In this document: in pieces, positions 36,148-63,390 of the stretch
Layout: every line of letters begins with the position of its first letter
Position numbering within the stretch: the stretch's first letter is position 1
DNA from: Candidatus Hydrogenedentota bacterium
Lineage (GTDB): Bacteria > Hydrogenedentota > Hydrogenedentia > Hydrogenedentales > G963678445
Direction: 5' to 3'
Length of the DNA: 64,000 nt
NCBI GenBank assembly: GCA_963678445.1
Contig: OY782877.1
Location: forward strand, 3,178,503-3,242,502
Made by a program: the position numbers and the translations under genes
Notes under the pieces: model-generated
Told to the model about the DNA's origin: nothing
The model's database searches: none
What the model saw: only the letters and a program-made list of their open reading frames with translations

Positions 36148-36159
36148 ACCTACGACTCC

Positions 36160-40283: not shown

Positions 40284-40458
40284 CGTCATTTGCAAAAAAA
40301 CACTACTCTAAAGGACATCCAAATTAGATAGTTTCCAATATTTTGCAATCCACCTGCCGTTCTCTTTGCTTTCACTCCAAACAGAGAACGGCAGGATTTT
40401 TAGAGTCGTATATGACGTTTTTTAGAAGATTTTTATTGTGCGCTACAGCAAAAGGAAG

Positions 40459-43747: not shown

Positions 43748-43766
43748 GGTCGATTCCTTGTTATGA

Positions 43767-44693: not shown

Positions 44694-44758
44694 AGGTGTA
44701 TTCCTTTATAGGCGTCATAACGGTACGAAACCTTATGGATGTGACTTCTGATTGTTTA

Positions 44759-45205
44759 TTAGCGTTTGTTCAAGCGACTGTAGACCGAAGGCGCCACCTT
44801 CATGCCGCGCGCTTCAAATTCCTTAAAGGCGCGCACATGATGCTCGAGTGCACCGCATCCGGCGCTATCCAGCTCAAGCCACTTTCCGTTGTAACGCTTG
44901 AAGTAGTATTCAATACCCTTGAACGTTTTCATTTCCTCATCCCCATGGTTGCGGATGTAGACGTGAATCACTCCCCAGGCTCGTCCAAAGAGGTTAAAAG
45001 ATTTGCCGCCATCTACTAAAATCAGGGTCTCATATGCAGCCGGATCCTCCTCACCGAGATAATCATTCAGCTTTTGCGTCGAGATTTCGTGCAATTCCGC
45101 CATCATGTCGCTGGTATCCACCCAGGACCAGGCAACAACAGAAAACGCACAGATTCCAATGAAGGCAACAAGTTTAAGCTCATTACGATGGATTACAAGA
45201 GTCAT
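44759..45205 (-). CDS. Hypothetical membrane-anchored periplasmic protein
   Basis: N-terminal TM helix. First gene of the ABC/DUF1007 operon. Confidence 0.45.
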   Translation of the reverse strand: MTLVIHRNELKLVAFIGICAFSVVAWSWVDTSDMMAELHEISTQKLNDYLGEEDPAAYETLILVDGGKSFNLFGRAWGVIHVYIRNHGDEEMKTFKGIEYYFKRYNGKWLELDSAGCGALEHHVRAFKEFEARGMKVAPSVYSRLNKR

Positions 45206-45465
45206 GTCTAATTCTTCCCATAGCGAAACATCCCGCTATACACGGACACAGCAGTAGTGCGTTCGCTTCTATTTGTTCCAGACAATACAGTGGAATACCA
45301 CCCGCTCTAGAGATGCCAAGAGGGATGTTGAGTGTCCTGTGACGTGTTGCATTGAAGATGGGAAATACGTCAGCAAAGCATCGCAGACAAACAAGAATAG
45401 CCCTTGGATATGCCGGGAGGGTGAAGGAGTTATGCGCACTGATTCTGAGGAGCGGTCCACATAGG

Positions 45466-45570
45466 CTAAAGCGGTCCAGCGACCACAAGCAGGAGGTATA
45501 GTCCTTACCATACCTGACAACAGCAAAGGCCCGTTTTTTATGACAACTTTTGCAGTGTCAGTCACTAAAG
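45466..45570. repeat. REP/MITE-like repeat, copy H
   Basis: ctaaagcggtccagcgaccacaagcagg...tagtccttacc...cgttttttatgacaacttttgcagtgtcagtcac. Confidence 0.8.
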
Positions 45571-45702
45571 TGACAGATATGTCGGCACATGCCCTTATCC
45601 TCTGTAGCAGATTTTTCTACGGAGATGAGATATCATATGCCTCACTGTAAAAATGCCTATAGCGCTACACAGTGCAACAAAACACCAACGTTATTGACGG
45701 GA

Positions 45703-46044
45703 TTACAGGCTGGGAGGACCGCGTAATTTGATACGGAAGACAAAACAACGGAATAGCGGTGTTTCGCAGGAGGGAATGGGACAGCACCGGCCAGGATAGT
45801 ACCGGGCAAGTGCTACTAGGAACAGGTAGAGAAAGACAGGAAGCTGCAAAAATTGGCAGAACGGACACGTTTCATGCTGGTGTTTATGTTCATGCCCTAA
45901 CAGGATGAAAAACAACTCATGCATGGCCGCAGCAGCAAAAACAGCGACAAGCAATATGGCAACACAACGTAGAAGCGCTTCCGTCGTATCTTTTCGCGGA
46001 AAACGGCGTATCCATACTCTCTGTGTGGAGCCAACTTTTGACAT
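45703..46044 (-). CDS. Small hypothetical membrane protein with His-rich/CPFC metal-binding-like motif
   Basis: 113-aa ORF with a hydrophobic core (LLVAVFAAAAM) and HEHKHQHETCPFC. No RBS checked, so weak support. Confidence 0.3.
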   Translation of the reverse strand: MSKVGSTQRVWIRRFPRKDTTEALLRCVAILLVAVFAAAAMHELFFILLGHEHKHQHETCPFCQFLQLPVFLYLFLVALARYYPGRCCPIPSCETPLFRCFVFRIKLRGPPSL

Positions 46045-46350
46045 GCGGTATATCTTTTCTGTTTAATGATATTGTATTCTCAACAATACAATAAACCCCG
46101 GTGGAAAATCAAAAGCGATTTTCTAGTCTGGATTTATATGCGTTGAATCATCCAAAAGGAGAGTGCCCAAAAATACGTATTTGCCCTTCCTTACTCAAAA
46201 ATGTAATAATCAATACGTGGTATGAATTGGAAAAAGTACATAGATGTATCGTAATGATACGTTTGTAATCCCTTTACAAGAACAAGGTGTTTTCCAAGCC
46301 TATAAAAAGAAATTATCTGGCAAATATTGTTGCTAGACAGCTTCGAACGT

Positions 46351-46711
46351 GGGGGCGACATGGTCTCGACGGGGATGAAAGAAGCGAAGGATGCGTGCCG
46401 AGGACCCCGGTGGCCTCGTAAAAAACCGGGATTTGTTAACTGCGAACAATGAATTCGCACTTGCCGCCTAAATAATGGCGACACGCTCTACCTGTGACTG
46501 CCTGCTAACGGGATAGAGCGCCGACTAGCGGGCCTTGAACCCGGGCGGTTGGGTTGGTCCCCCCGGTGAGAGTAAGTTGACCCTCTAGCGAAGCTGGACA
46601 GCGCGCCTGACGCGGTCCGGTGGGGCGAATCTTTTAAAGGACAGGCTACGCACGTAGAAGCCTTCGTGGACGCATCTTCGGACGCGGGTTCGATTCCCGC
46701 CGCCTCCACCA
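46351..46711 (+). ncRNA. ssrA: tmRNA (transfer-messenger RNA, SsrA)
   Basis: 5' GGGGGCGACAUGG pairs with the 3' ...CGCCGCCUCCACCA acceptor stem (7 bp, one G-U). T-arm GGTTCGATTCC. Internal tag reading frame gcg aac aat gaa ttc gca ctt gcc gcc taa encodes ANNEFALAA followed by a stop. 3' CCA is encoded. Confidence 0.92.
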
Positions 46712-46739
46712 TTTTTTGATTGCAGCAAGCCTATGTTAC

Positions 46740-47270
46740 TCAACGGCTTGCTGCGATTTTCACTCTTATCTGGCTTACTTTGGTCACGCATTTAGCACGC
46801 TCGAACATTTCGAGTACAGGTTCAGTTACTTTCTCAGATAGCATCTGCATGTTTGCCTGATTGCTCTGAGCATAGGTATTGAATGTTAAGCGCGGGTCGC
46901 TGTGGTCAAGTGCTTCCTGCGCCTCTTTCCCATAGTTGCGCCATTTTCGACAACAAAAGTTGCATACGCCACACGCAATGAATGGAAGTCAATTTTCCCT
47001 TCTCCGGTTTCCTTTCAACACTGGACAAGGCCATGCTCAAGGTCATGCGGCGAGTTTTACCGCCCAAACGACCTGGAGACGGGCTTCTTGGTAGGTCATA
47101 TCCAGATCATTCTGGTTCGCCCCATTGAACCCGTCGGCATTTCTGATGAATCCCACGCATGTGTCACATTCCACTCGCTATCCATTTCGAGCGTATGCTC
47201 CAACTCCACATGGTCGAGGAGGTCGCCCTTCCGCGCCGTAAGGAACTCCCATCAAGTATGCTTTGCTACA
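46740..47270 (-). pseudogene. Degraded tyrosine recombinase (phage-type integrase) remnant adjacent to tmRNA
   Basis: Minus-strand translation gives DFHSLRVAYATFVVENGATMGK (box II H-x-L-R...A-T...ENGA). After a +1 frameshift it gives QEALDHSDPRLTFNTYAQ (catalytic Tyr motif L-G/D-H-S...T...Y). There are at least 3 in-frame stops further upstream. It terminates 29 nt from the tmRNA 3' end. Confidence 0.6.
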
Positions 47271-47319
47271 ACTACTTAGCAGAATCAGACTCCAATTGCG
47301 TGTAGTACCGCAACGATAT

Positions 47320-48489
47320 CTAGCGCATTAGAGTGAGTTCAACACGCCCTTTCATATCCTCAGCAATCTCAGGTCTGTCAAGCATGCCAGGAGAAAGAGC
47401 TCTCCCCTTTTCCTGAGTCTGGAAGTTCAGGTACTTTGACCAACGATGAAGGTCGTCCATACTGACGTAATTGAAGCGAACTCGTTCACACACGACATGC
47501 CCCCCCGAGCGTTGCAAGAGAAACACGTGTGTTTCTGGATCGTAGCTAATGGGCGAAAGCTCGGAAAACTTCCCTTCTGACACTGCGTAGCGCCTGACAA
47601 AGCCCGTCGAGCGATTCTTGCTGCCCTCACGCTCGACACCGATCCTGTAGAGTATGTGTTCCTGACCGAATCTCCTCAATAGATACTCCGAACGAGAACC
47701 CATGGGAGCGACGGCTGAGGAAGCCAGGAGGGTACAGCTGTCAAGTGCAACGAGATGAAGATGCAACTCGTCTCCCTCTTTCAGTCTCGACCAGATGATA
47801 GCTCGCTCGCCCTCGAAACAGGCATATGAGCAGAATGCGGTTGCCTTCTCCTTGCATAGCAAGGAGGAGGCAACGCACCTCCCCGTCTCTCTCCCACTCC
47901 ACGCATCGATCTTCAGAATGGTGTCGTACGTTGAGGCTCGACCGACAAAGAGGAGTCTTTTGTCTTCGGATAGCGAAACAGGATATCCAAGCCTGAGATC
48001 GAAGCCGAAATCCTGCGCTGCTGATTGGCTTAGGGGATGACAAACGAGACTACTGCGTTTCTCGAAGTCCCTGACGTACACAAGATCCTTCGAGACAGGA
48101 AGAACGAGGGAATCACCTCCAGTGAACTGCCGAATACCAGTATCCCGAAACGAACCCGAAGTAACGTCAAACAGATAGAGTTGATCCTCCCTTTTGTCTG
48201 GCTCATGGACGAAGAAGTAGCCTACTTTTTCGTCAGCGAGATACCATCCCCGGAGTATGGCATGCGACCGGAGCCCCAGTAGCGGCACGCGCGCGACTTC
48301 GCGAGCACTACGTTCGGCGTAATCGATCTCTAGAATCACGCCCTCCGCAGTAAGGTCGTAGTAGACGCTCGTGTCGCCATCAGCGGGTACTGAACGTAGA
48401 GCATACTCAGAGGCGTGAACACTCGCGGTAGCAAGAGCACTCAAGACGAGCACACACCCACTTGTGCATATTAGGAATCGTCGGTTCAT
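47320..48489 (-). CDS. Secreted hypothetical protein (island cargo)
   Basis: Start re-assigned to MNRRFLICTSGCVLVLSALATASVHA (signal peptide). No motif recognised. Confidence 0.5.
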   Translation of the reverse strand: MNRRFLICTSGCVLVLSALATASVHASEYALRSVPADGDTSVYYDLTAEGVILEIDYAERSAREVARVPLLGLRSHAILRGWYLADEKVGYFFVHEPDKREDQLYLFDVTSGSFRDTGIRQFTGGDSLVLPVSKDLVYVRDFEKRSSLVCHPLSQSAAQDFGFDLRLGYPVSLSEDKRLLFVGRASTYDTILKIDAWSGRETGRCVASSLLCKEKATAFCSYACFEGERAIIWSRLKEGDELHLHLVALDSCTLLASSAVAPMGSRSEYLLRRFGQEHILYRIGVEREGSKNRSTGFVRRYAVSEGKFSELSPISYDPETHVFLLQRSGGHVVCERVRFNYVSMDDLHRWSKYLNFQTQEKGRALSPGMLDRPEIAEDMKGRVELTLMR

Positions 48490-48601
48490 TCTGGATACTC
48501 CTCTCCGTCCTGATGGTCCCAACCTTCCGGGAATTGTCCCGTGCCCCCATCCGCACCTTGCACAAAACCAAATATGCAAATAATACCCAGAAGTTGCTGT
48601 T

Positions 48602-50005
48602 TCATGGAAAAACGTTATATGTGCGTTCGAAACAGGGGGTATTTTCTTCCTCGTCATCCTCCCATTGACAGTCGGCTTTTGAGGGGTAAATGGTTTGTTG
48701 CTTGGGGGTGGGGTTCTCTGGAGTTGGGGATTCGATGGCCCAGTGCGCATGGTGTACCCAGTCGGCTTGGATGCAGCATTGTTTCTGATCTTCCAATACC
48801 TTTCCGTCGATGAAGGGGCAGCGGTACAAACTATCCTTATGCCGGAAGAGGAGTTCGTCGTTCTCGGTAATCAGCAAGACCTCCATATCGGGCTGGGTAG
48901 TCCAGGTAGACATTTTCTCTCCGTTGGAAGTGATAAAGCGGTACACCGCATGATTAGGATCGAAGTATTTGGTTTCGCGTTTTGGAGGGAAGACCACCCA
49001 ATAATCGCCACGTCGGACAGTGCCGCTAGAAAAATAATTCGCATCTAACGATAACGTTTTCCAGGACTTCTTGACCTTGTCAAAGAGCACAAAGTATCTT
49101 TTTGGTATTTTTTGGGCAGGATCCCATATGTATAACGCTATGAACGCCTGCGTGTCGGTCTGCGCATATATGGAACCATCCGCCCAAGCCTGTGAATCCG
49201 TATGTCCCGACATCCAGGCCCCATCATTCGTTAACGCCTTATGCTGTTCCAGTATCTCCTTCGACAGGAAAAAAACCATTGGTATCATGTACCGGTATAT
49301 TTGATGATACATTTCCCCCGTCTCTTTGTTGAGATGAAAATCAATGTCTCGATACGATGAAACGAAGGGGGAGGCATCCTGGTACACGATATTTTCCCAT
49401 TTTACATCCGCTCCAGGCACGATACTGAGCTGGTCGGAAGCCAAGTCGTACTGATAGAATTTATCCGTTTCAAGTTTTGTTATGAGCACATTTAGTTTGC
49501 CATCCGATGTATTGTAGAAATAATTCTGCCTCACAATCCTTTCCGGCAAGGTATATTCTTCAACGAACTTTTCTTGTTTAAAATCATAAATCCTGAGCCA
49601 CCCCCTTGTCTTTTTCCGATCTTCAGCAGATTTTTTGTAATAATTGTCTATTATCGATTTATTTCCCAAAAGCAATGCCCATTTCTTCTCGGGATGAATA
49701 AATACATTGTTTACTCCGTCCAGAACGGTTATTTGTTGGGCTGACGCACCCAAGTACGATTCAGCGCGGAAATTTCGCGAATAGATTTGGGTAGCTTGAT
49801 TCATTTCCGGATTCAGCCGATAAATCGCAAACGTCGTAGGGGGAACGATATCTTCATCGGGATTGCTTACCAAATAAAGGCTTGTGTCTGCATAAATACC
49901 TTGCACAAAGCTCAATAGACAAACGCCGAGTAATACAACAAGGCCCACACGCGGCAACGATGAACCTTGCCTTTTCTGGTCAATATATGAATCTTTATCA
50001 GGCAT
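48602..50005 (-). CDS. Secreted hypothetical protein (island cargo, AT-rich)
   Basis: Signal peptide-like N-terminus (GLVVLLGVCLLSFVQGIYA), 467 aa, notably AT-rich coding sequence. Confidence 0.5.
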   Translation of the reverse strand: MPDKDSYIDQKRQGSSLPRVGLVVLLGVCLLSFVQGIYADTSLYLVSNPDEDIVPPTTFAIYRLNPEMNQATQIYSRNFRAESYLGASAQQITVLDGVNNVFIHPEKKWALLLGNKSIIDNYYKKSAEDRKKTRGWLRIYDFKQEKFVEEYTLPERIVRQNYFYNTSDGKLNVLITKLETDKFYQYDLASDQLSIVPGADVKWENIVYQDASPFVSSYRDIDFHLNKETGEMYHQIYRYMIPMVFFLSKEILEQHKALTNDGAWMSGHTDSQAWADGSIYAQTDTQAFIALYIWDPAQKIPKRYFVLFDKVKKSWKTLSLDANYFSSGTVRRGDYWVVFPPKRETKYFDPNHAVYRFITSNGEKMSTWTTQPDMEVLLITENDELLFRHKDSLYRCPFIDGKVLEDQKQCCIQADWVHHAHWAIESPTPENPTPKQQTIYPSKADCQWEDDEEENTPCFERTYNVFP

Positions 50006-50100
50006 AACCGAGTATATCTCTATAGATTGTACACTTCAAAAAAAGGGGGCTTTTTTCTGAATTCACCCTGTAGAATTGCTGGGGATGAATCGTGGCCACT

Positions 50101-51009
50101 TTATTCTTTCGGCAGGAGCCACCAGTAGTCTTTTTTGTTCTCCTCCCACCAGGTGAGCCAGTAGGCGGTGTCGTGGACGTTGTCAGGCACCACGTTGGGT
50201 ACACGTTTGGGGACTAAGCGTACGCCGTCGTCGTATTCTCCCTCTTCCTGGGGATATACGAGGCCGTATCCTCTATCAATGAGATCTTGTACTTCGGGCG
50301 GTGGTGAAGTATGTTTTTTGGGCCTAGATTTTAGAAGGCGAATTTCTTCTTCCTCTCCTTCCACTGGGGTGAGCGCCAGGGTCAGGAGCACGAGATCGTA
50401 ATAATCTGAATGCTCTTCCTGGATGCGTTGCATAATAAAAGGGACGGCTAGAAGCCCCATTGTCTTCAATGCGGAAAAAGTAGGCTCAGAGAACAGTTTT
50501 TCCTTGTCGATAGCTCCCTGCGCCAGACGTTGATCAAAGGCCTGTCTTCTGACCACGAAGGCTTCTTTTGAATAGGTAGACACATTTTTCCAGAAATGGA
50601 TTATTTTTCCCTGTATTTCGGGTGTGGGCAACGCACGCCCCGGACGAATCTCATCATAGGTCATACCAGCAACATCTAGCCAGAAGCCATTGAGCATTCT
50701 GGCGAGAGCATCGTCATAATTAAGATTGCCATACTGCGTCTGTATCAGTTCCTCAACCATGAAGGGGACGCCGGCCGCTTGCATATTGACGAGGTTGATG
50801 TAATCCTCGCCGATAAAAAATATATTTGTAGTACTTGAATATTGTAACTTTGGTTTTTTCAATATTTTGGAATCCCAGTTGCTTAAATAGACATTGAATT
50901 GCTTGTATTCTTTTGCGTGCTGCGTATACAGAGAATCGAAAATCTTCTCTTCCTGCGCCATACTGGAAAACGATATACTCAAAACACATGCAAGATAGAA
51001 AAAACGCAT
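50101..51009 (-). CDS. Secreted hypothetical protein, paralog 1 of tandem pair (candidate immunity protein)
   Basis: Start re-assigned to MRFFYLACVLSISFSSMAQE (signal peptide). Near-identical to the upstream paralog over long stretches, including an identical C-terminal 31 aa. Confidence 0.6.
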   Translation of the reverse strand: MRFFYLACVLSISFSSMAQEEKIFDSLYTQHAKEYKQFNVYLSNWDSKILKKPKLQYSSTTNIFFIGEDYINLVNMQAAGVPFMVEELIQTQYGNLNYDDALARMLNGFWLDVAGMTYDEIRPGRALPTPEIQGKIIHFWKNVSTYSKEAFVVRRQAFDQRLAQGAIDKEKLFSEPTFSALKTMGLLAVPFIMQRIQEEHSDYYDLVLLTLALTPVEGEEEEIRLLKSRPKKHTSPPPEVQDLIDRGYGLVYPQEEGEYDDGVRLVPKRVPNVVPDNVHDTAYWLTWWEENKKDYWWLLPKE

Positions 51010-51050
51010 ACTTTGTCCCTTCGCATTTTCATGATCTGCGGGGTGGTGGT

Positions 51051-51956
51051 TTATTCTTTTGGCAGGAGCCACCAGTAGTCTTTTTTGTTCTCTTCCCACC
51101 AGGTAAGCCAGTAGGCGGTGTCGTGGACGTTGTCAGGAACTACGTTGAGGATAGGCTTGGGGACTAAGCGTATACCGTCGTCGTATTCTCCCTCCTCCTC
51201 GAAACATCCGGGACAGTAGTATCTCGTTTCATGGTTCCCTTCTGCGTTCGGCGAAGTGCCTTTTTTGAACCTAGATTTCAGACGGCGAATTTCTTCTTCC
51301 TCTCCTTCCACCGGGGTGAGCGCCATGGTCAGGAGCACGAGATCGTAATAATCTGAATTTTCTTCTTGGATGCGTTGCATAATAGAAGGGACGGCTAGAA
51401 GCCCCATTGTCTTCAATGCGGAAAAAGTAGGCTCAGAGAACAGTTTTTCCTTGTCGATAGCTCCCTGAGCTAAACGCTGATCAAAGGCCTGTCTTCTGAC
51501 CACGAAGGCTTCTCTTGAATAGGTAGACACATTTTTCCAGAAATGGATTATTTTTCCCTGTATTTCGGGTGTGGGCAACGCACGCCCCGGACGAATCTCA
51601 TCATAGGTCATACCAGCAACATTCCTCCACCCCCCCCTGATCATTTTGGAGAGAGCATCGTCATAAAAAGAATTGCCATACTGCGTCTGCATCAGCTTTT
51701 CAATCATGAAGGGTACGCCGAGCGCTTGCATATTGACGAGGTTGATGTAATCCTCACCGATAAAATAAACGTATAGAAGGCTTGAGCTTTGTAGTTTTGG
51801 ATTCTTAAATATCTTGGAATCCCAGTTGTTGAAATACGTGTTAAACTGTTTGTATTCTTTCTCGCGTTGTGTATATAGAGAATCAAAAATCTTTTCCTCC
51901 TGCGCCATGCTGGAAAATGATATACTCAAGATACACATCAGATAAAAAAATCTCAT
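51051..51956 (-). CDS. Secreted hypothetical protein, paralog 2 of tandem pair (candidate immunity protein)
   Basis: Start MRFFYLMCILSISFSSMAQE with RBS aaggag 7 nt upstream, 16 nt after the stop of the giant gene. About 90% nucleotide identity to the 50101-51050 unit. Confidence 0.6.
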   Translation of the reverse strand: MRFFYLMCILSISFSSMAQEEKIFDSLYTQREKEYKQFNTYFNNWDSKIFKNPKLQSSSLLYVYFIGEDYINLVNMQALGVPFMIEKLMQTQYGNSFYDDALSKMIRGGWRNVAGMTYDEIRPGRALPTPEIQGKIIHFWKNVSTYSREAFVVRRQAFDQRLAQGAIDKEKLFSEPTFSALKTMGLLAVPSIMQRIQEENSDYYDLVLLTMALTPVEGEEEEIRRLKSRFKKGTSPNAEGNHETRYYCPGCFEEEGEYDDGIRLVPKPILNVVPDNVHDTAYWLTWWEENKKDYWWLLPKE

Positions 51957-51972
51957 TTCAGGCTCCTTATCC

Positions 51973-54900
51973 TTATCTATAATACCGCGTTGGTGGACCA
52001 TATTCTTTTAACCACGTGTCGCCATGCGTAATGCGCTCTTCTTTACCTCGTTTACTACCCCAATTTCCGCCACAATCGTCTATTTTATAGGCGTGAAGAC
52101 CTTTTTTCGGGTTATTCTCGTCAAACACAAGGCCCACCCTGGCCCCTTCTCTGGTTGCACAGTGTTCGAAACCATGCTCCGCATAGAACGCATCCCAGTC
52201 ATCATTTTTAATTTTCCCATCGTTATTGCCATACTCAGCATCAACAGAAACGTACTTAGGATCTGAAGAAGGGTAAAAATAGGTTATCCATTTGTCGGTT
52301 CTTCCCACACTCCAGGCGATACAGTTGTATCTATCTGTAGGTTCGTCGGTTTTACAGACAGGGACCAGTTTTTCTTCTCCTTCTGTATAATATCCTAGAA
52401 ATGCGCAGGCTGCGTTTGGGATTCCACAGGCGCATATTGGCTGGAAAACAGGGGTTATGCTTCTGGATTCCGTCATTGTAAGGTAAATGGTGCTTTTTTT
52501 GAGGTTGGAGAGAGTGTTGGGCAGAAAGACTCTTGTCCAGCCGTTGGTGTCGGATGTGGCGTAGCCCCAGGCATCGCCTTTGCCGCACCAGCCTGCGAAG
52601 GCGTAGCCGGGTAGGGGACGGGCTTTTATCTGGACGATATCGTTGTCGTTGTAGTATTTTTGGGCAGGGTCGCTGGTAACGTAACCTTTACATCTTGAAT
52701 AGCCGAGATCGAGGGTGTGGGCGGATTTGGCTTTGTAGCTAACATGGGCGCCGCATGAGCTTGGGGTGGTCTCCCAGCTTACGCCTTGATATCCAAGGGT
52801 ATTAGAGTGTGGAACAGGAATGGCTGTAACATCACAGGAGCTGGAGCAGGTAACGGGAGGTAGAATTCGGGTTCCACCAACGATAATGGGCAGGACGCCA
52901 ATTGTGCTTGAGGAGGTATAGGTCTTTGCTGTAGAGGGAATGGGGGAAGATGAAATGATGGGTTCGAGCGCCGTAAGCTCAGATTTTCCCGGAAGTTGTA
53001 TGGTGGCGCCGTAGCTGATGACATCGTTAATGACGCCATTGTCATAGAGTTCCCAACGTCCCTTGCCCTCGGGGGGGAGGAAAAAGCTGATGGTGACGGA
53101 TTCGTTTTGTGGCGTAGTGATGTTAACGCCTTGGTAAATATCACTTTCGTCATATACCGGGCTTATGGAACCCTCCGAAAGAAGATGTAACCCCACGTTT
53201 TCGGCTATTTGAGCAGCCGGCAGAAAAAGTGTGGTCTCCCATTTTTCGATAACGTTTGCTTTGATGGTATAGCCCTCATAGGATTTGGGCACCACAAAGG
53301 TTTCGACGGATTTGTCGCTACCGTCTATGGGCAGGTCGGGCGCGTGCCAGCAGCTGAAGGTGGCGAATGCCGGATTGATGGTCTCGGCAGTAACGGTGAC
53401 CTCGCGTCCAACACGCAACGGTACGGTGCTATTTTCGCCAATGGTGTCAATTTCGCAGTCGTTGGTTTTTCCGGTAATGCGAATGGCCACCCTTTCGGGT
53501 TCGGGGCCATCATTACCATCCGGATCCAAAAGCACGTTTTCCAAGGTAATTGGCGTAGTCGCACCGTTGCATGTATCGTTTTCACAAGTGACGCATTCTC
53601 CGGGTGGGGGTTGGTAGCCGGAGGGCGCTATGCCGTCGCTGGCGTTTGAACCGTAGTTTTTGGCGTCGCCCAGGGATGTGCTGCTCGCGGCTTTTGGGGC
53701 GTTCAGGGACGCTGGCTGTACGCTATCCAGGGTATAGTGCCATTCGCCGATGTTGACCAGGCCGTCGTTGTCGCAGTCGTTTTCGGGGGCGAAGTGTTGT
53801 AGGGATTCGATGGCGTAGTTGCTGCTGTCGAGTTCGATGCCGGTGAGTTCTTCGATTTCGTGGCATATCATGTCGGTGGCGCCGTAGTAGCCGAGGGTCA
53901 TGTAGGAGGCGATTACGTTGATGATAGCGGCGGTGCATTCGACGGGTTGGGGGTTGATGAGGGGGTTGCACCAGGGGCTGATATCCGTTGTGGCGCGTGC
54001 GTGGTTTTGCATAAAGTGCTTGTAAACCAGTTTGTTGGATACCCCGCCGGTTTCGGACAGGTTAATCTCGGGATGGAGCAGAACGTGTTCGAGCAGGGCG
54101 AATTCGGCGGCGTCGGGGATGCCGTTTTCGGTGTGGATGGGGTTACCGGCTTCGTCGAAGAAGAGGCCACCGCGGTCCCATTGCATGTTGCTCACTTCTT
54201 GGGCGGAGGTGAGTTCTCCGATGTTTTCCAGGAATATGCCGAGGTCAGCGATCAGGTCGAGGTCGGTCAGTTCGGAACGTTCCTCGAAAAAGGCGGTAAG
54301 GATAACGTCGGCATCAAGGGGAAGCTGTATGTCGGGGAAGGGAATGCCGCCGGTGTTTTGCTGGAAGGCCATGTTGTTGAAATTGGCGATGCGGAGGGTG
54401 TTGTGCCATTGGTCCTGCCAGTAGAGGAAGGTCCAGTCGGTGTCTGCCTGTGCGGTGAGGGGCAGGGTGTTTACTTCGCAGTCGGGACAGTCGGTCTGGG
54501 TGGAGTTGGGCGGCCAGTCGAGGGGGCTGTAGGTGAGGATGTATTTTGTGCCTTCGAAGGGGGTAAGTGCACCGTTGCCCTCGTCTTGGAGAGTTACTTT
54601 GACACTGGGAGGTGTGCCGGTCGCTTCGGGATCGTTCACACTGAGCAGCATCTCTTTGCTTACCAATTGGTTGGAGGTGCTAAGCGCAAGGGCATGGAAA
54701 AAACCGGGGGTGTCGGTCCAGGTAGTGAAAGAGGCAAAACCGTCTTCCACATCCTGAAACAGGTATTCTTCGAGGTTGGTGAATCCATCACCATCAAAAT
54801 CACCATCCTGATGAAACACATCGTCGAGGCAGGTGAATTCCCAACAGGATGGGGGCTGCGGAACGATTCCGTAGCGTTGGACCAGGTTGGCAATGTAGAG

Positions 54901-55872
54901 GGCCTCGGCGTTCAAAACGCTTTCCAGGCTAAGTGTGCTATACGTGGCCAGTGCGCAAACTACGGCGTAGTCGGGATGGGTAAAGTTGGGTAGCTGTGCC
55001 GCCACTGTGTCGTTGTATTCAAGCCAGAGGGCCAGATTGGATAGCCATGCGCTCCGGGCTTCCGCATAGAGCGGATGGCTCTGGTCCTCCAATACGCGCT
55101 CGAGTAGGAAGAATTCCAGCACGTCGGGTATGTGGTAGCCTTTTGTATCCGGGTTCAGATTAAAGAGTCCGGTAGTATCAATAGCCGTCTGATCGATGTT
55201 CAGCGTGGGGAGAAATTGGCTTATAAAAGGACGTGTCAAAAAATCCCAATCAACATCGTCAATTTGGTTCAGGATGTTGTTGTAATCGGCTAGCAGCAAT
55301 GCCAGTGTGTCTATGGGACCCAGCGTAAGATCGGGAGGATTGAGGGAGCGATCGATACCGCGCAGGTAATCAACAAAGTGCTGCAGGTCGCCCGGCAGGT
55401 GATGTTTAACAAATACGGCATTTACACTGGTATTCGTCGTTAAGGGGAAGGTGAGCGGCCATGCATACTGCGCTGCACCGGTATCCACCGACCAGTGGTC
55501 AAAGCGGTACCCGATAGACGGCGTTGCTTTAAGGGTGAGGGGCGTGTTCCAGCCAAAGGTGTAGGGCGAATTATAGGACACACCGCCAGATTCGACAGTA
55601 ACGTCGCCTTGGGTCGTGTCGCAAGTAAGATTCAGCGTATATTGGTCAAGCTCAAACGTGGCGTATGCGGTTATATCCCTGTTCATGGTAAGCACCACCG
55701 TACTGGGTTGGGTAGCGAGATCCCCCGTCCATCCCGTGAAATGATAATGAGGATTGGGCATCGCGCTAAGCGTGACGGAGTCGCCGTAGGTATACACTAT
55801 AGGGAAGCTATCCGTATTCGGCGGCGTCGCGGTGACATGACCGCTTCCCTTACTCAAGTCGTTTCTATTCAC
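51973..55872 (-). CDS. Giant (1299 aa) multi-domain secreted/surface protein with a C-terminal Cys/His putative hydrolase (toxin-like) domain
   Basis: Repeated GYxFxGW/HW InlB-B-repeat-like modules (HYHFTGWTGD, GYRFDHWSVD, GYAFAGWCGKGD). Thrombospondin-type-3/dockerin-like Ca-binding loops (DGDFDGDGFTNLEEY, DCDNDGLVNIGEW). A distinct last ~160 aa (…YNCIAWSVGRTDKW…HAYKIDDCGGNW…). Confidence 0.7.
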   Translation of the reverse strand: MNRNDLSKGSGHVTATPPNTDSFPIVYTYGDSVTLSAMPNPHYHFTGWTGDLATQPSTVVLTMNRDITAYATFELDQYTLNLTCDTTQGDVTVESGGVSYNSPYTFGWNTPLTLKATPSIGYRFDHWSVDTGAAQYAWPLTFPLTTNTSVNAVFVKHHLPGDLQHFVDYLRGIDRSLNPPDLTLGPIDTLALLLADYNNILNQIDDVDWDFLTRPFISQFLPTLNIDQTAIDTTGLFNLNPDTKGYHIPDVLEFFLLERVLEDQSHPLYAEARSAWLSNLALWLEYNDTVAAQLPNFTHPDYAVVCALATYSTLSLESVLNAEALYIANLVQRYGIVPQPPSCWEFTCLDDVFHQDGDFDGDGFTNLEEYLFQDVEDGFASFTTWTDTPGFFHALALSTSNQLVSKEMLLSVNDPEATGTPPSVKVTLQDEGNGALTPFEGTKYILTYSPLDWPPNSTQTDCPDCEVNTLPLTAQADTDWTFLYWQDQWHNTLRIANFNNMAFQQNTGGIPFPDIQLPLDADVILTAFFEERSELTDLDLIADLGIFLENIGELTSAQEVSNMQWDRGGLFFDEAGNPIHTENGIPDAAEFALLEHVLLHPEINLSETGGVSNKLVYKHFMQNHARATTDISPWCNPLINPQPVECTAAIINVIASYMTLGYYGATDMICHEIEELTGIELDSSNYAIESLQHFAPENDCDNDGLVNIGEWHYTLDSVQPASLNAPKAASSTSLGDAKNYGSNASDGIAPSGYQPPPGECVTCENDTCNGATTPITLENVLLDPDGNDGPEPERVAIRITGKTNDCEIDTIGENSTVPLRVGREVTVTAETINPAFATFSCWHAPDLPIDGSDKSVETFVVPKSYEGYTIKANVIEKWETTLFLPAAQIAENVGLHLLSEGSISPVYDESDIYQGVNITTPQNESVTISFFLPPEGKGRWELYDNGVINDVISYGATIQLPGKSELTALEPIISSSPIPSTAKTYTSSSTIGVLPIIVGGTRILPPVTCSSSCDVTAIPVPHSNTLGYQGVSWETTPSSCGAHVSYKAKSAHTLDLGYSRCKGYVTSDPAQKYYNDNDIVQIKARPLPGYAFAGWCGKGDAWGYATSDTNGWTRVFLPNTLSNLKKSTIYLTMTESRSITPVFQPICACGIPNAACAFLGYYTEGEEKLVPVCKTDEPTDRYNCIAWSVGRTDKWITYFYPSSDPKYVSVDAEYGNNDGKIKNDDWDAFYAEHGFEHCATREGARVGLVFDENNPKKGLHAYKIDDCGGNWGSKRGKEERITHGDTWLKEYGPPTRYYR

Positions 55873-56379
55873 TTCAAGTTTTCTTTCCTGTCTGGGATTA
55901 TATAATCCAGACCAGAAATTGATATACGAGCGGAAAGGGCACTTTAGACTTACGCAATACCCCCCTCACGGATGTAGGTCCGGGGGGGCTTTTTTAGATC
56001 TGTCGACAGACATCCCCGATAACGTCATAGAAACTCATTTTCTTCGGAGTATCCCGTGTCTGAGATAATATTGCTTGTGAAATACATCAGCTTCATTCAA
56101 TAGTTGGTGGACCTTGGGAGTGTTCTTTATCTGATATCCAATTATCATAGTGATTGGAAGCGCAGGAAGACTAACAAAATTTATCGAGAATAGCTCCATA
56201 TAACATATTTGAAATCAGCTACATATGAAGGGTGTTCTGAAATAGAATTCGGTGCTTTGTTAGCACTTGACATCAATGAGTGCTAAGCGTTATACTCATA
56301 ATTATCCTAAAAAGGGTGCGTATTAAGCGCCAGAGATAGCTTAGCAAAACAGAGATTATAAAGGACTTAACGAAACCAC

Positions 56380-57363
56380 ATGACAGAACCTTTTCAGATA
56401 CTCTCGTTAGATGGCGGCGGCATCAAGGGCCTATTTTCTGCTGCTGTGCTGGCACATATCGAGAAGGACTTGAAAACCCGAATCGTAGACCATTTCGATT
56501 TAATCGTCGGCACTTCTACCGGTGGAATCATAGCTCTGGCCCTAGGCCTAGGAATATCGCCCAAGGAGATAGTTGAGTTCTATGTAGAAAAAGGACCAAA
56601 GATTTTTCCGAAGGGATGGTTGTTTCGGCCTGTAAGAGGACTTCAACATTATGTCATGCGAAAATTCTCTGCTAGGGGACTTGAGAAGGCTCTTCAAGAA
56701 ATCGCTGGCGACAAGACTCTGGGAGACTGCCAAAAGCGTTTAGTAGTTCCTTCCTATAACCTTCAAGAGAATGATGTTTACCTTTTCAAGACCCCCCATC
56801 ATAAACGCTTTCGAAGGGACTGGGAAATTCCTGTCTGGAAGGTGGCCCGTGCGACCTCCGCTGCTCCTACATACTTCTCGGCATACAGAGGGATTGATTC
56901 TGTCCGTCTCATTGACGGAGGTGTGTGGGCAAATAATCCGTGTATGGTGGGTGTAGTCGAAGCTATGAGCACACTCTCTGTTGATTCTGCCTGCCTGAAA
57001 CTATTTAGCATTGGTACTTCAGATGGAGTAGTACGGCGCTCCTCGCTACTTGATTGGGCAGGGCGTTTTCTTTGGGCACGTCACGCCAGCGATGTGCTCT
57101 TGGACGCGCAGTCAAGAGGAGCCTTCACCCAAGCTAAACTCATTTTAGGCACGGACCGGACGTACCGCATCAACCCTAAGGTACCTGCGGGGCTGTTCGG
57201 TCTCGATAAATTGTCAACAAAAGAACATCTAGGTATGGCAGCTCACCAAAGTAGAAAGTTTATACCTATCTTTGAACAACACTTCGCAGCCCACACCGCC
57301 CCAAAGTATCAACCGTTCTATGGCCGAAACTCAGATACCGACGAAACACCGACAACTGATTAA
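56380..57363 (+). CDS. Patatin-like phospholipase (CBASS CapV/CapE-type effector)
   Basis: Oxyanion GGGIKG, nucleophile elbow GTSTGG (GxSxG), catalytic DGG (LIDGGVWANNP). Confidence 0.85.
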   Translation: MTEPFQILSLDGGGIKGLFSAAVLAHIEKDLKTRIVDHFDLIVGTSTGGIIALALGLGISPKEIVEFYVEKGPKIFPKGWLFRPVRGLQHYVMRKFSARGLEKALQEIAGDKTLGDCQKRLVVPSYNLQENDVYLFKTPHHKRFRRDWEIPVWKVARATSAAPTYFSAYRGIDSVRLIDGGVWANNPCMVGVVEAMSTLSVDSACLKLFSIGTSDGVVRRSSLLDWAGRFLWARHASDVLLDAQSRGAFTQAKLILGTDRTYRINPKVPAGLFGLDKLSTKEHLGMAAHQSRKFIPIFEQHFAAHTAPKYQPFYGRNSDTDETPTTD

Positions 57364-57371
57364 GGAAACAT

Positions 57372-58565
57372 ATGATGGAGACAAAACAAAAAGTGATTGA
57401 GTCGTTGGTAGAATCGCTTGAGGTTTCGCCTAGCACGTATGAGTTAGCCGAAAGCAGGTATAAGGATTTGGGGGTGTGGCTTCATGACGCTTCCAAAGCA
57501 AAGGTAGCGCCATATGATCCACATGTTTTTCCCCAAGGCTCTATTCGGCTTGGCACAGCCATTCGCCCCTTGGATTCCGACCATTACGATTTGGACCTAG
57601 CGTGCGAATTGCGAGCAGGTATCTCGACGAATTCTCACAGCCAAGAAGATGTAAAGGCTTTTATTGGCGGGGATCTTGAGAAATATCGAATCGAGCGAAA
57701 TATTAAGGATAAGCTTGATGAAAAACATCGCTGTTGGAGGCTAAACTACCAAGATAGTCCTAGATTCCATATGGACACCGTTCCATGTATCCCACACGAT
57801 GAAAAAATACGACAACATCTTTTTGAAAGCATGAAAACGGGAAGCATCCAGACAGAACTCGCTGATAACATCGCCAATCAAGCAATTGCTATCACTGATA
57901 ACAGGCGGCCAGATTTTTCCATGCTCTCTCCCAACTGGCCTATCAGCAATCCCGAAGGATATGCTATTTGGTTTGAATCCCGCATGAGACAAGCGAAGCA
58001 GCTTCTCGAATGTCGGGTGGCTTCGGCTCTGGTAGCAAGTATCGAGGAGCTTCCTACTTACCAATGGAAATCCCCACTTCAGCGATGTGTGCAGATTTTG
58101 AAACGGCATAGGGACCAGATGTTTCGTCAGAATGGCGATGCCAAACCTATCTCAATAATCATAACGACTCTGGCCGCTCAGGCCTACCAGGGTGAACGCG
58201 ACATATACGAGGTGCTTGCGCAGATTTTGAACTCAATGGGTAACTTTGTACGCCCTACAGCGCCACGTGTCCCAAATCCTGTAAATCCGAAAGAAGACTT
58301 TGCCGACAAGTGGGGCACGCTAGAAGGAAAGCGGCTTGCACTTGAAGATAACTTCCGGCTTTGGCTGCAACAAGCAAAGGCAGACTTTGAAAACCTTTCC
58401 TCCGCAAGAACACGCCAGCGGGTGGCTTCACTGACTACTCATAAGTATGGAGTGAATATCAGCGAAGAACGACTTGAGCAAATCCCAGGGCTTTCTTCAT
58501 CTGCCCCGACAATTGCGTCTTTTAAGATCGCCGAATCGTCACCCCCAAAGCCATGGCAAAAGTAA
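57372..58565 (+). CDS. cGAS/DncV-like nucleotidyltransferase (CD-NTase, SMODS-type)
   Basis: Pol-beta-type minimal NTase signature GS-x9-D-x-D (QGSIRLGTAIRPLDSDHYDLDL) plus a third acidic residue (FHMDTVPCIP). 397 aa. Starts 9 nt after the patatin gene (RBS aaggaaa) and overlaps the next gene by 13 nt. Confidence 0.7.
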   Translation: MMETKQKVIESLVESLEVSPSTYELAESRYKDLGVWLHDASKAKVAPYDPHVFPQGSIRLGTAIRPLDSDHYDLDLACELRAGISTNSHSQEDVKAFIGGDLEKYRIERNIKDKLDEKHRCWRLNYQDSPRFHMDTVPCIPHDEKIRQHLFESMKTGSIQTELADNIANQAIAITDNRRPDFSMLSPNWPISNPEGYAIWFESRMRQAKQLLECRVASALVASIEELPTYQWKSPLQRCVQILKRHRDQMFRQNGDAKPISIIITTLAAQAYQGERDIYEVLAQILNSMGNFVRPTAPRVPNPVNPKEDFADKWGTLEGKRLALEDNFRLWLQQAKADFENLSSARTRQRVASLTTHKYGVNISEERLEQIPGLSSSAPTIASFKIAESSPPKPWQK

Positions 58566-59221
58566 AAAAAACTTGGACGGATATTGATCTACAGGGATTT
58601 CTACGCAAGTTCCCTGACATGTCTGTAGTACCGCAGAAAGAAGGTTCGTTGGTTCTTGAGGGTTGTTTTAGCTTTGAGGCATCAACAACTTCTCATGGCT
58701 CTGAGTCTGGTACTTACCTTCTTCGAATCAAAGTTCCACCCTCATTTCCTGCAGAGCTTCCTCGGGTTCAAGAACTCGGAAAGCGCATACCTAAGAATCC
58801 AGAACACCATATCAATTCCGACGGTTCACTCTGTTTGGGATCGCGTATCCGTCTACTTGTTCAAATCTCAAAAGAGCCGACTCTTTGTGGCTTCGCTAAG
58901 AATTGTCTAATACCATATCTCTTTGCCATCACACGAAAACTAAAACATGGTAACGCACTGGTATTCGGAGAGCTTGCTCACGGCAACACAGGAGAACTCA
59001 ACGATTATGCTGATTTGTTGAATCTTGACAATCCCCCTGCGGTCCTTTGCGCATTGAAGTATCTCGGAATGAAAAAGAGACGCGCCAACAAACTACCTTG
59101 TCCATGTGGCTGTGGCTTGCGCCTTGGCAAGTGTAGATTCAACTTTCATTTACGCGAACTCCGTTGTCTTGCTGAAAGGGATTGGTTTCAGTCGGTCCTA
59201 AGCGATCTGGAGAAACAGTGA
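58553..59221 (+). CDS. E2 ubiquitin-conjugating-like protein (CBASS Cap2-short type) with C-terminal Cys cluster
   Basis: UBC-like active-site region PEHHINSDGSLCLG (HPN-like...G-x-LCL) and a C-terminal CPCGCGLRLGKC. 222 aa, with no E1 or JAB partner present. Confidence 0.55.
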   Translation: MAKVKKTWTDIDLQGFLRKFPDMSVVPQKEGSLVLEGCFSFEASTTSHGSESGTYLLRIKVPPSFPAELPRVQELGKRIPKNPEHHINSDGSLCLGSRIRLLVQISKEPTLCGFAKNCLIPYLFAITRKLKHGNALVFGELAHGNTGELNDYADLLNLDNPPAVLCALKYLGMKKRRANKLPCPCGCGLRLGKCRFNFHLRELRCLAERDWFQSVLSDLEKQ

Positions 59222-59284
59222 TACTGTAGCGCTAAGAGACATCAGAATGCGAATACTGATCCTTACACGCTCCTTTAAGCTAGT

Positions 59285-60805
59285 CTAAAAGAGGGAGGCC
59301 CCCCGGCTATGCCGGGGGATACTTACTAATAACGTCTCCAACTGCGTCAGGCCCGACAAATACGACAAATCCGAGAACTCACCCGTCGCGGATATCTGGT
59401 TTTCACTCAGATTCAGCGTCGTCAGGTTCTTAAGATCTTCCAGAAAATCAATCTCAGAAAAAGAATTGTTCGACAAATCCAACGTCTGCAAATCCAGGCA
59501 ATATTGAATCCCTTCTATCGAAGTAATTCCCAACCCCGACGCATCCAACGAGGTAAAACCTTTGTTTATCAAACCTTCCCAATACAACGTACCTGTCAAT
59601 TTCCCCACCGCCGCACGCACCGCCGTTTCCAAACGCATATCCACAAAATACGTCGTCGCATCCGGTGACGGCAAGGCTACCATCCGCACCTGCACATCGG
59701 AATTCATCGTCAAAGTCGTCGGATTGTCGTAAGCATGGACCGGGTCCATTCCGGGAACAGTCACCTCGAAATACTCAAGAATCCAGTCCTCTTCCGGAAC
59801 CGCCATAATCTCCACCGAAGCACCCGCACGATACTTCTCCGCAATCGGATACGGATATATCCCCAAGCCCGACCAAGACCGTGTCATCGTATAAAACGTT
59901 CCCGCAGGAACCGTCTGCACATCCAACGCCGCCGCATAATACGCCGCAAAATTCTGCTCAAACGTACTCAGCACCGCCTCCTCCTGCCACTCCAGCAGAT
60001 TACTGAACGTATCCCCATCCACATCCCCCTGCGCAGAAATCAGCGGCACCAACGATGTATCCAGCAAGATAGAAAAATCTTCCTCCTCTGCAAACTCAAT
60101 CCCCAACTCATCCGAAAACACCGTGGCTATAAACACAGAAAGCGGATCTCCCAACACCGCATACGCCGTTAACACCTCAACCACCCCCGCAGGCACGCCT
60201 GCCGGGACCGTCGCATCAGCAAACAACGCCGCCACCGCCAACCAACGCGTTGCCAACGCCACATGCGTAAGCCCACCCGAAGCCGACAAATCCACCGTAT
60301 CATCCTGCAACACATCCTCCAACACCAAAAACTCCGCCAGATCCGGAAAACCATTCGGCTCCCCATACGCAACCCCATCCTCATCCAACGACGCACCATT
60401 TAGATCAACCGCCTCTGCGCTATCCGGCAAATCCAAAAACGTTGCAAACGTCGCCATCGAAGCCCGCAGATCCAGATTATCAAACTGCCCACCCGTCTTC
60501 GCCTCCAGAAAGCCCCTACCCCTACTACCCTTTTCCTCCATCAACATCGCGCGCCGCTCAGGATTCGAAAAACTTTCCCAATCCACCGACATACGATGTA
60601 CCCGATCCAATTTTCTCGCCTCCTCCTCCGTGATCCCCTCCATATCCGGCAAAATCTTACGCAACCCCTGCTTCGCACTCGTAAAACGCGGCATCCCCAT
60701 TCCCGAAACTCGAGCACGCCCCTCCAATACCCCCTGCGACCCCGCCTTCCCCTCTCCCGCACCCCGCTTCATCAGAGCCCCCTTCCCTGTATGCCGCAAA
60801 CACAA
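59285..60805 (-). CDS. Leucine-rich-repeat protein sharing N-terminal modules with the giant protein
   Basis: C-terminal LRRs (LDLSNNSFSEIDFLEDLKNLTTLNLSENQIS). N-terminal segments FPDLAEFLVLEDVL and DGDTFSNLLEWQ parallel IPDAAEFALLEHVL and DGDGFTNLEEY of the giant protein. Confidence 0.55.
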   Translation of the reverse strand: MCLRHTGKGALMKRGAGEGKAGSQGVLEGRARVSGMGMPRFTSAKQGLRKILPDMEGITEEEARKLDRVHRMSVDWESFSNPERRAMLMEEKGSRGRGFLEAKTGGQFDNLDLRASMATFATFLDLPDSAEAVDLNGASLDEDGVAYGEPNGFPDLAEFLVLEDVLQDDTVDLSASGGLTHVALATRWLAVAALFADATVPAGVPAGVVEVLTAYAVLGDPLSVFIATVFSDELGIEFAEEEDFSILLDTSLVPLISAQGDVDGDTFSNLLEWQEEAVLSTFEQNFAAYYAAALDVQTVPAGTFYTMTRSWSGLGIYPYPIAEKYRAGASVEIMAVPEEDWILEYFEVTVPGMDPVHAYDNPTTLTMNSDVQVRMVALPSPDATTYFVDMRLETAVRAAVGKLTGTLYWEGLINKGFTSLDASGLGITSIEGIQYCLDLQTLDLSNNSFSEIDFLEDLKNLTTLNLSENQISATGEFSDLSYLSGLTQLETLLVSIPRHSRGASLF

Positions 60806-61097
60806 CTTTTAATTGCCGGAGCAATAACAAGTACAAGGATTGCCTGCCGAATAGAGTTCGATAAGTGCGGCCACGCACTTATGATTTCCGCCAGATCGCC
60901 ATAAATCTGGTGCATACATATAGCACGCTCAGATGTGTTCTCTGTGTGTCTTGAGTGTCGCGGTTCTGTAGTCGAAGTGTTGTTTCGGCAGTCCGAACAC
61001 AGCTTATAACTGTTTAGATTTGTTGTAGTTGTGTGTTCGCATGTGGTTGAAGTGTTGAGATTCTGTGAGGATGTGTTGATAGAATTAATTGCATTTT

Positions 61098-61117
61098 GAT
61101 TCCCGCCTCCTCCACCA
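61098..61117. repeat. attR-like direct repeat of the tmRNA 3' end (island right border)
   Basis: gattcccgcctcctccacca versus tmRNA 46692-46711 gattcccgccgcctccacca (19/20 identical, with tt.gattcc extending the match). Confidence 0.65.
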
Positions 61118-61269
61118 TGCAAACACTTGAGGCCCTTGAGGTTATAATAGCCTCAAGGGCGTTTGTGTATTTGTTGGGTGCGCGTGTGCAGCCATAGCAC
61201 CCATCACGTATTCCCCTGCTTCTCCCAACGAAGTTTTTGTTGTGCTCAGGGGGGGGATGACCATATTTT

Positions 61270-61314
61270 CTGGGTGGCCCCCTGCCCCTTTGTGGTCGCT
61301 GGACCGCTTTGGTA
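61270..61314. repeat. REP/MITE-like repeat, partial copy I
   Basis: ctttgtggtcgctggaccgctttggtaagg. Confidence 0.6.
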
Positions 61315-62836: not shown

Positions 62837-62901
62837 CCTAGAGCGTTTTAACTAAACGACTATGCATTTTTAGCGCATAATCGTGTAGTTAAAACGCTCT
62901 A
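62837..62901. promoter_or_regulatory. Long perfect inverted repeat (16-bp arms, 33-nt spacer) at the 3' end of arsC
   Basis: ctagagcgttttaact ... agttaaaacgctctag. The right arm includes the arsC stop codon. Confidence 0.5.
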
Positions 62902-63364: not shown

Positions 63365-63390
63365 TTAAAGCGGTCCAGTGACCGCTTTAG
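63365..63390. repeat. Degenerate REP-like palindrome, copy J
   Basis: aaagcggtccagtgaccgcttt. Palindrome AAAGCGGTC-cagt-GACCGCTTT in the 51-bp arsC intergenic spacer. Confidence 0.5.

Follow-up and report, generated by a model that had tools for sequence, protein, structure and literature searches.

Evidence for a 14.4-kb integrative genomic island with a decayed tyrosine integrase and a CBASS operon at the tmRNA gene of a Candidatus Hydrogenedentota bacterium

The sequence analysed here (the window) is a stretch of 64,000 nucleotides of contig OY782877.1 from a Candidatus Hydrogenedentota bacterium. It contains the transfer-messenger RNA (tmRNA) gene, ssrA, followed by a putative genomic island of 14,406 bp. 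The ssrA gene at 46351..46711 on the plus strand is intact, encodes the tag ANNEFALAA and matches the full Rfam model RF00023 with 182 bits; ARAGORN detected it as the sole tmRNA gene of the window. The terminal 20-mer of the tmRNA, GATTCCCGCCGCCTCCACCA (46692-46711), is repeated in the same orientation as GATTCCCGCCTCCTCCACCA at 61098-61117 with 19/20 identical positions. An earlier inspection of the letters, here called the sequence-only reading, had placed the tmRNA end at 46711 and noted this repeat, and both were recovered. With up to 3 mismatches allowed (<=3), the 20-mer occurred at just these two sites in the 64 kb and at none in 100 dinucleotide-preserving shuffles, and a chance origin of the repeat was rejected on this test. 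A repeat finder lengthened the pair to 22/24 nt, 46689-46712 versus 61095-61118, which puts the copies 14,406 nt from each other. The left copy, attL (TTCGATTCCCGCCGCCTCCACCAT, 46689..46712, plus strand), runs from the T-loop through the 3' strand of the acceptor stem and CCA, and the right copy, attR (TTTGATTCCCGCCTCCTCCACCAT, 61095..61118, plus strand), is a displaced fragment of the ssrA 3' end. A sensitive short-word blast with the tmRNA 3' region found no third or partial copy between attL and attR, indicating one island, and a tandem array of several islands was rejected since there is no internal att copy. The ssrA gene is the integration target, with its 3' end, from T-loop to CCA, forming attL, and island sequence begins at 46712/46713, immediately 3' of the intact tmRNA.

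To compare the locus with related genomes, we used the ABC-transporter ATPase encoded 2 kb left of the tmRNA in a homologue search. This led, through proteins of 99% and 96% identity, to two contigs, L057 (ERZ21831104, ctg97355l) and the metagenomic L058 (ENA ERZ21878204, ctg9178l), whose tmRNAs are identical to that of the window at 360/361 and 360/365 positions, respectively. L058 lacks the island. Its positions 7996-14358 align with window 46712-40336 at 94.5% identity and its positions 6278-8019 with window 62839-61095 at 91.2%, and the two blastn blocks overlap by exactly the 24-nt repeat. The 20-mer is present in L058 in a single copy, and the junction, ...CGCCGCCTCCACCA / TGCAAACACTTGACGCCCTTGAGG, which can also be read as ...GGGTTCGATTCCCGCCGCCTCCACCA / TGCAAACACTTGACGCCCTTGAGGTTAGCATAGCCTCAAGGGCGTTTGTG, joins the tmRNA to the sequence right of attR. 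The CCA at the tmRNA 3' end is directly followed by TGCAAACACTTGA.GCCCTTGAGG..., which corresponds to the window from 61118 onward. L058 is thus an empty site, in which 46711 is joined to about 61118, the junction that the sequence-only reading had proposed to look for in related genomes, and the window carries exactly 14,406 bp extra.

The empty site also reveals which parts of the locus are native. Where the uninterrupted ssrA of L058 has a G that pairs with C6 in the acceptor stem, attR has a T. This G-to-T change would break the C6-G pair, suggesting that the attR copy is not under selection and is a non-functional, drifting fragment. Such drift fits the displaced native 3' end of the standard ssrA-island model (Williams 2003, as cited in PMC3146451), and the crossover here would probably lie in the T-loop. 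The strongest intrinsic-terminator-like hairpin of the region (61132..61170, plus strand; 13 bp with a T-rich tail) lies 15 nt past attR. In L058 it stands directly 3' of the tmRNA, which identifies it as ssrA's own terminator, moved away from the gene when the element inserted. The intact tmRNA of the window is followed instead by a hairpin at 46722..46754, GCAGCAAGCC-13 nt-GGCTTGCTGC, which was read from the sequence, was also detected as inverted 10-mers and holds the stop codon of an integrase gene within its loop. This hairpin is probably a bidirectional terminator supplied by the element. These features suggest that the attP of the element included a duplicate tmRNA 3' end spanning the T-loop, the acceptor strand and CCA. 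On integration, the element would then have rebuilt a functional tmRNA at attL, with the element-borne hairpin behind it, and would have pushed the original ssrA 3' fragment and its terminator 14.4 kb downstream to form attR.

The integrase gene is a tyrosine-recombinase pseudogene on the minus strand (46740..47260), whose stop codon (46740-46742) lies 29 nt beyond the tmRNA. The sequence-only reading had recognised a recombinase remnant here, broken by a frameshift and stops, and the profile searches agree with it. The motifs are split over two frames (KIDFHSLR versus LDHSDPRLTFNTYA, and KIDFHSLRVAYATF versus KEAQEALDHSDPRLTFNTYAQ), a box-I-like TARKGDLL stands further upstream, and the HS...TY catalytic tail is kept; the gene contains several in-frame stops and a frameshift. 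A translation stitched from the two frames scored 27.7 bits against Pfam Phage_integrase (gathering score 27.1), covering only positions 106-170 of the 172 in the profile, and matched three PHROG integrase families at E = 1e-5. An intact 412-aa integrase on an IMG/VR contig (L060) aligned to the remnant through residues 345-390 only. The integrase is therefore a pseudogene of ~170 codons that retains only the C-terminal catalytic part and lacks ~240 N-terminal codons. The N-terminal half would have been lost, and the frameshift and stops gained, after integration. Since the gene is 5'-truncated, frameshifted and interrupted by stops, it is reasonable to regard the island as now immobile. With its only recombinase a pseudogene, its mobility is predicted to be lost: it would no longer excise by itself and would behave as fixed chromosomal DNA. 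Collectively, the duplicated ssrA 3' end, the empty site and the adjoining integrase remnant suggest that the 14,406 bp are very probably an integrative genomic island inserted into the ssrA 3' end by site-specific recombination of a tyrosine recombinase. The sequence-only reading is supported in this, and each of the checks it had proposed spoke for it.

The island carries defence genes, toxin-like genes, genes for secreted proteins and a gene for a leucine-rich repeat (LRR) protein. No housekeeping gene was detected with Pfam, NCBIfam and PADLOC, in line with what the sequence-only reading had said of its content, with the exception that one protein, of 1299 aa, has no leader. No open reading frame (ORF) of the island had a Pfam or NCBIfam match to a relaxase, an oriT-associated function or type IV secretion, no similarity to a plasmid collection was found, and neither a transposase nor an insertion sequence (IS) was found inside the island. 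A temperate phage at ssrA that lost its structural genes might also leave an integrase beside attL, and ssrA is a known prophage site, which favours such an origin. The integrase adjoining attL is of the phage type, and its nearest recognisable relatives lie on IMG/VR viral contigs, where a scan found two integrases with 52% identity to the remnant over just 44 aa and with no tRNA or tmRNA gene nearby. However, the integrase is the only PHROG match of known function in the island, the LRR protein hitting a family of unknown function. A nucleotide comparison with 50,697 phage records gave no match; structural, packaging and lysis genes were not found; and the closely spaced genes for defence and secreted proteins leave no room for remnants of a phage. 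A decayed prophage is, on this evidence, a very improbable explanation.

The second relative, L057, is 98.3% identical to window 33766-46873 and keeps the first 162 nt of the island, of which the initial 80 aligned positions are 82% identical and the following 85 are 96% identical. Beyond these 162 nt come ~500 unrelated nt and then a segment of 130 nt (L057 7184-7312) that is 88% identical to window 60825-60953. Further downstream, L057 has a 396-aa ORF and core-type genes (oxidoreductase, type II secretion system (T2SS) F, rotamase and arginyl-tRNA synthetase, ArgRS), and attR is not present downstream of its tmRNA. In the window, the 130-nt segment is non-coding, lies near attR and contains the hairpin ATAAGTGCG-gcca-CGCACTTAT. 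It is conserved downstream of the L057 ssrA although nearly all other island sequence differs, and is possibly a former attP arm or a regulatory site. The two stretches shared with L057, 46712-46873 and 60825-60953, are the very ones that would border the core if attP were circular, and they may therefore be conserved att arms.

The right flank of the island, with its sialidase gene, is found in this relative on another contig, L059, from the same sample as L057. The sialidase flank (L059) and the tmRNA flank (L057) thus lie on two different ~0.9-Mb contigs of a 98%-identical relative. L059 is homologous to the window only from 61335 onward, and ~750 nt from this right breakpoint it has IS fragments (DUF772, DDE_Tnp_1_6) that are frameshifted; the breakpoint regions are L057 1-8000 and L059 7900-9874. 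The split flanks and the IS fragments indicate that the locus has been deleted or rearranged around the island in the L057/L059 genome, and suggest that the rearrangement was IS-associated. The split also raises the possibility, short of a probability, that the dead island acts as a breakpoint in large rearrangements of the chromosome. Three related genomes therefore show three states of the locus: empty (L058), occupied by the 14.4-kb island (the window) and rearranged with a trace (L057/L059).

Loss, rather than gain, could in principle explain the empty site, if the 14.4 kb were ancestral and L058 had deleted them by homologous recombination between the 24-nt repeats. A repeat-mediated deletion gives the same junction as excision by the integrase or a never-occupied site, and L057 shows that the locus does decay and rearrange. 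An imperfect repeat of 24 nt is, however, a poor substrate for RecA, and the duplicated ssrA 3' end and adjoining integrase would still need an original site-specific integration. We regard this history as highly unlikely, and it would alter the timing of the feature rather than its nature. Timing also bears on the sequence-only reading, which had called the island old and now immobile. Its immobility is a reasonable reading of the dead integrase, but "old" is overstated and can be meant only in a relative sense: the island is absent from L058, whose flanks are ~93% identical, and only the 162-nt trace is common to the window and its 98% relative L057.

Further searches around the site returned the following. 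The sialidase flank, compared with one genome per species, had a best match of 77% protein identity with no synteny and no tmRNA, and was uninformative. The exact empty-junction pattern had 0 matches in the JGI metagenomes, a collection outside which the ENA assembly of L058 lies. A degenerate pattern for the ANNEFALAA tag retrieved 49 metagenomic loci, with tmRNAs ~74% identical and unrelated flanks. Two distant relatives of the ABC transporter (L062 and L063, 72% identity) have the operon without an adjoining tmRNA and are uninformative on the site, and exact-protein look-ups with the window proteins gave no record. In the right flank itself, L058 differs from the window by a 3.7-kb McrBC-like cassette that separates its sialidase gene from the LMWPc gene. 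The cassette spans L058 2519-6278, equivalent to window 62839-62893, and consists of an AAA_5 GTPase in two pieces and a McrC-like protein; at this point the window has only a hairpin with 28-nt arms (62838-62902). At 1.7 kb from attR, this is a second variable site for defence genes, and a small one. The sialidase gene adjoining ssrA in L058 (6460-7654) was called as two pieces (260 + 152 aa) and is probably frameshifted; the window and L059 both have it intact, with 397 aa.

The right half of the island encodes CBASS, a system of antiphage signalling by cyclic oligonucleotides, on the plus strand. The best sigma-70-like promoter of the region, TTGACA-18-TATACT (56267..56296, plus strand; an 11/12 consensus match only), lies ~85 nt upstream of capV. 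CapV (56380..57363), a patatin-like phospholipase effector, was identified by Pfam Patatin, by the PADLOC effector model (353 bits) and by NCBIfam CBASS_lipase (259 bits versus a cutoff of 200), and has the GGGxxG, GTSTG and DGG motifs. The second gene (57372..58565) encodes a cGAS/DncV-like nucleotidyltransferase (CD-NTase), a cyclase recognised by PADLOC (397 bits) and Pfam DncV-like_NTFase; it scored 85 bits, below the NCBIfam cGAS equivalog cutoff of 150, and its catalytic motifs GS...DLD...D are intact, read as QGS...DLDL...HMD. The third (58553..59221) encodes an E2-only Cap2-like protein of 222 aa (PADLOC E2, 257 bits) with the HxN...C motif HHINSDGSLC. There is no E1 or JAB (Cap3) partner, as the operon has no further ORF and the next gene is convergent, and the E2-only protein assigns the operon to CBASS type II-short. 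As in other operons of this type, its three genes stand in the canonical order and overlap or abut one another, and their catalytic motifs are intact; nothing unusual was detected. The anti-phage operon of the sequence-only reading is therefore a complete CBASS, and by its motifs it appears intact and is predicted to be active. CapV is the commonest CBASS effector (PMC12480259), and regulation of the cyclase by Cap2-type proteins is established for type II CBASS (PMC10097602). Upon infection, the CD-NTase would make a cyclic nucleotide, the CapV phospholipase would kill the cell and the E2 protein would regulate the cyclase, resulting in abortive infection.

To the left of the operon lie five tightly co-oriented minus-strand genes, encoding the 1299-aa protein, two paralogs and two leader-bearing proteins. 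Here, "secreted" refers to N-terminal hydrophobic leaders that we read directly from the translations. Nearest to the integrase remnant is a gene for a 389-aa protein (47320..48489) with the hydrophobic leader MNRRFLICTSGCVLVLSALATASVHA, followed by one for a 467-aa protein (48602..50005) with a signal-peptide-like leader. Neither protein had a match in Pfam, NCBIfam, PADLOC, PHROGs or the PDB, and no kinship of the second to its 389-aa neighbour was detectable. The two paralogs, of ~302 aa (50101..51009; leader MRFFYLACVLSISFSSMA) and ~301 aa (51051..51956), both have signal-peptide-like leaders and arose from a recent tandem duplication (D1/D2) of a ~950-nt gene within window 50100-52001, where the copies are 88-94% identical in nucleotides. 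They belong to no known family in Pfam or NCBIfam, and PDB sequence searches with them were empty. Only 16 nt separate the second paralog from the stop codon of the 1299-aa gene (51973..55872, GTG start), in whose product Pfam recognised three Flg_new_2 domains (InlB B-repeats) and, over the C-terminal ~125 aa, DUF7689.

An exhaustive HMMER search for DUF7689 homologs yielded 70 representatives of 113-1299 aa, in which the domain mostly lies at or near the C-terminus and has the invariant or near-invariant residues YNC..W, D, H, SKxG and H. This suggests, with moderate confidence, that DUF7689 is a papain-like Cys/His hydrolase toxin domain, and the paralogs are candidate periplasmic immunity proteins. 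The toxin-like locus of the sequence-only reading is thereby plausible. The large repeat protein, the small C-terminal domain, predicted to be a Cys/His hydrolase and found on many different N-terminal contexts, and the small duplicated genes immediately downstream of the 1299-aa gene are shared with polymorphic toxin-immunity loci that have papain-like or NlpC-P60 C-terminal domains (Tae/Tai, CdiA-CT/CdiI). Against a toxin role, the 1299-aa protein has no signal peptide, known trafficking domain or upstream extension, only the Flg_new_2 repeats, and it is because of this lack of a detectable secretion signal that our confidence is no more than moderate. A single-sequence AlphaFold model of the DUF7689 domain had a predicted local distance difference test (pLDDT) score of 31 and was discarded, and a Foldseek search of the PDB gave no significant match. 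We tentatively propose, as a possibility short of a probable one, that the minus-strand array is an uncharacterised secreted-effector/immunity system of the candidate phylum, delivered as ssrA-island cargo.

Convergent to the CBASS operon, a minus-strand gene with a TTG start (59285..60805) encodes the 506-aa LRR protein. Its C-terminal leucine-rich repeats were matched by Pfam LRR_4 and, partially, by internalin-like NCBIfam models, and the gene may be decayed, given its TTG start and few repeats. The LRR protein and the 1299-aa protein share the motifs G-I/F-PD-x-AEF-xx-LE-x-VL (GxPDxAEFxxLExVL-type) and D-x-DGDG-xx-N-xx-E, which suggests a common module.

The base composition of the island sets it apart from the backbone to a lesser extent than the sequence-only reading had indicated. 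The island has 49.2% GC versus 51.0% for the backbone, a difference that is not significant over 1-kb windows (Mann-Whitney p = 0.19) and reaches p = 0.02 at the gene level (48.6% versus 51.8%). The claim that the interval is AT-richer than its flanks is thus marginal; low-GC patches (49-52.5 kb and 56-59.5 kb) alternate with stretches of 52-58% GC. Tetranucleotide usage deviates more clearly than GC, correlating with the backbone at 0.66-0.79 for the island versus 0.80-0.91. Internally the island is a mosaic: the 1299-aa and LRR genes have 53-54% GC and opposite coding-strand GC skews (-0.17 versus +0.39), and the CBASS genes and the paralogs have 45-49% GC. This leaves room for cargo accretion. 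Indeed, the minus-strand array, the CBASS operon and the LRR gene could have been acquired independently and accreted inside one att-bounded site, as the mosaic composition would suggest; exchange of one defence system for another inside an island is known to happen (PMC11551731). Against this, no internal copy of the ssrA repeat and no second integrase mark a tandem insertion, and the island has no transposase or IS. We consider such a composite origin unlikely, although it would not be surprising, and favour a single integrative island.

Two further compositional features concern the window as a whole. Within 1-46000, the plus-strand GC skew is strongly positive (0.1-0.4 per 2 kb) over the first ~34 kb, whatever the gene orientation, and negative thereafter, with a cumulative peak at ~34-36 kb; the change near 34000-36000 could mark an inversion boundary or a skew switch of the kind found at a replication terminus. 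The motif AAAGCGGTCCAG(C/T)GACC occurs in four copies, at 20335-20355 (minus), 45468-45488 (plus), 61290-61310 (minus) and 63367-63387 (plus), all in the backbone, on either side of the island and never inside it. Two of them coincide in part with mechanical TTG/GTG ORF starts. The copy at 63370 forms a perfect palindrome, AAAGCGGTC-CAGT-GACCGCTTT, and is placed between a DsbD_2-like gene and the LMWPc (arsenate-reductase-like) gene. The motif may be an operator or a repetitive extragenic palindromic (REP)-like element; as boundary evidence it was rejected, since its four copies in the window are not significant.

Several observations weigh against an integrative island at ssrA as the full account of the locus. 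The comparison comprises one empty-site genome and one rearranged genome, and no available relative carries the same intact island. In L057 the flanks are 98% identical but the first 80 nt of the island are only 82% identical, and its trace may stem from another allele of the element instead of reflecting common descent alone. Searching for homologues of the stitched integrase gave no intact close relative, the remnant being too decayed for a word-based search, and we infer the ssrA specificity of the integrase from its position alone. The GC difference between island and backbone is marginal.

In its architecture, the island resembles known ssrA-targeting tyrosine-integrase islands and prophages such as CP4-57 of E. 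coli. Like these, it is inserted at the ssrA 3' end with a distal repeat of the tmRNA 3' end, has its integrase at the tmRNA-proximal end, supplies a new 3' end and terminator while displacing the native terminator, and varies in occupancy between strains. Unlike them, its integrase is a 5'-truncated, frameshifted pseudogene, the island is predicted to be fixed and has no phage or mobilisation genes, and the host belongs to an uncultured lineage, the nearest named protein relatives being in Hydrogenedentota metagenome-assembled genomes. Integrative islands and prophages that target ssrA with tyrosine integrases are reportedly the subject of "Traffic at the tmRNA gene" (Williams 2003). Published ssrA islands have a direct repeat of 20 bp and, adjoining attL, a reverse-strand integration module (PMC3146451, citing Williams 2003). 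The ssrA genomic islands of Dehalococcoides likewise share a 20-bp repeat, insertion in or near the T-loop, reverse-strand integration genes by attL and strain-specific accessory cargo of ~12 kb (PMC3146451). They differ in having a serine recombinase (DsiB, CcrB-like), tandem arrays and reductive dehalogenases (PMC3146451), whereas the window has a single island, a tyrosine-recombinase remnant and defence/toxin cargo. Integrating islands produce fragments of the tmRNA gene that are a routine observation (PMC4131195).

The locus changes no concept, insertion at ssrA, integrase decay and islands with CBASS all being firmly established; only the host lineage and the uncharacterised DUF7689 array are mildly novel. 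What it provides is a clean, fully delimited defence island "locked in" at a tmRNA gene: its boundaries are resolved to the base pair, an empty site serves as control and its integrase is dead. In this poorly sampled uncultured lineage, too, ssrA is shown to be a hotspot of insertion and rearrangement, and an intact CBASS type II-short operon is now on record there. The locus further draws attention to DUF7689, a candidate toxin domain of the Cys/His hydrolase type. If the effector/immunity reading of the array is true, DUF7689 would define cysteine hydrolase toxins of a new family, antibacterial or host-directed in action and paired with immunity proteins in the periplasm.

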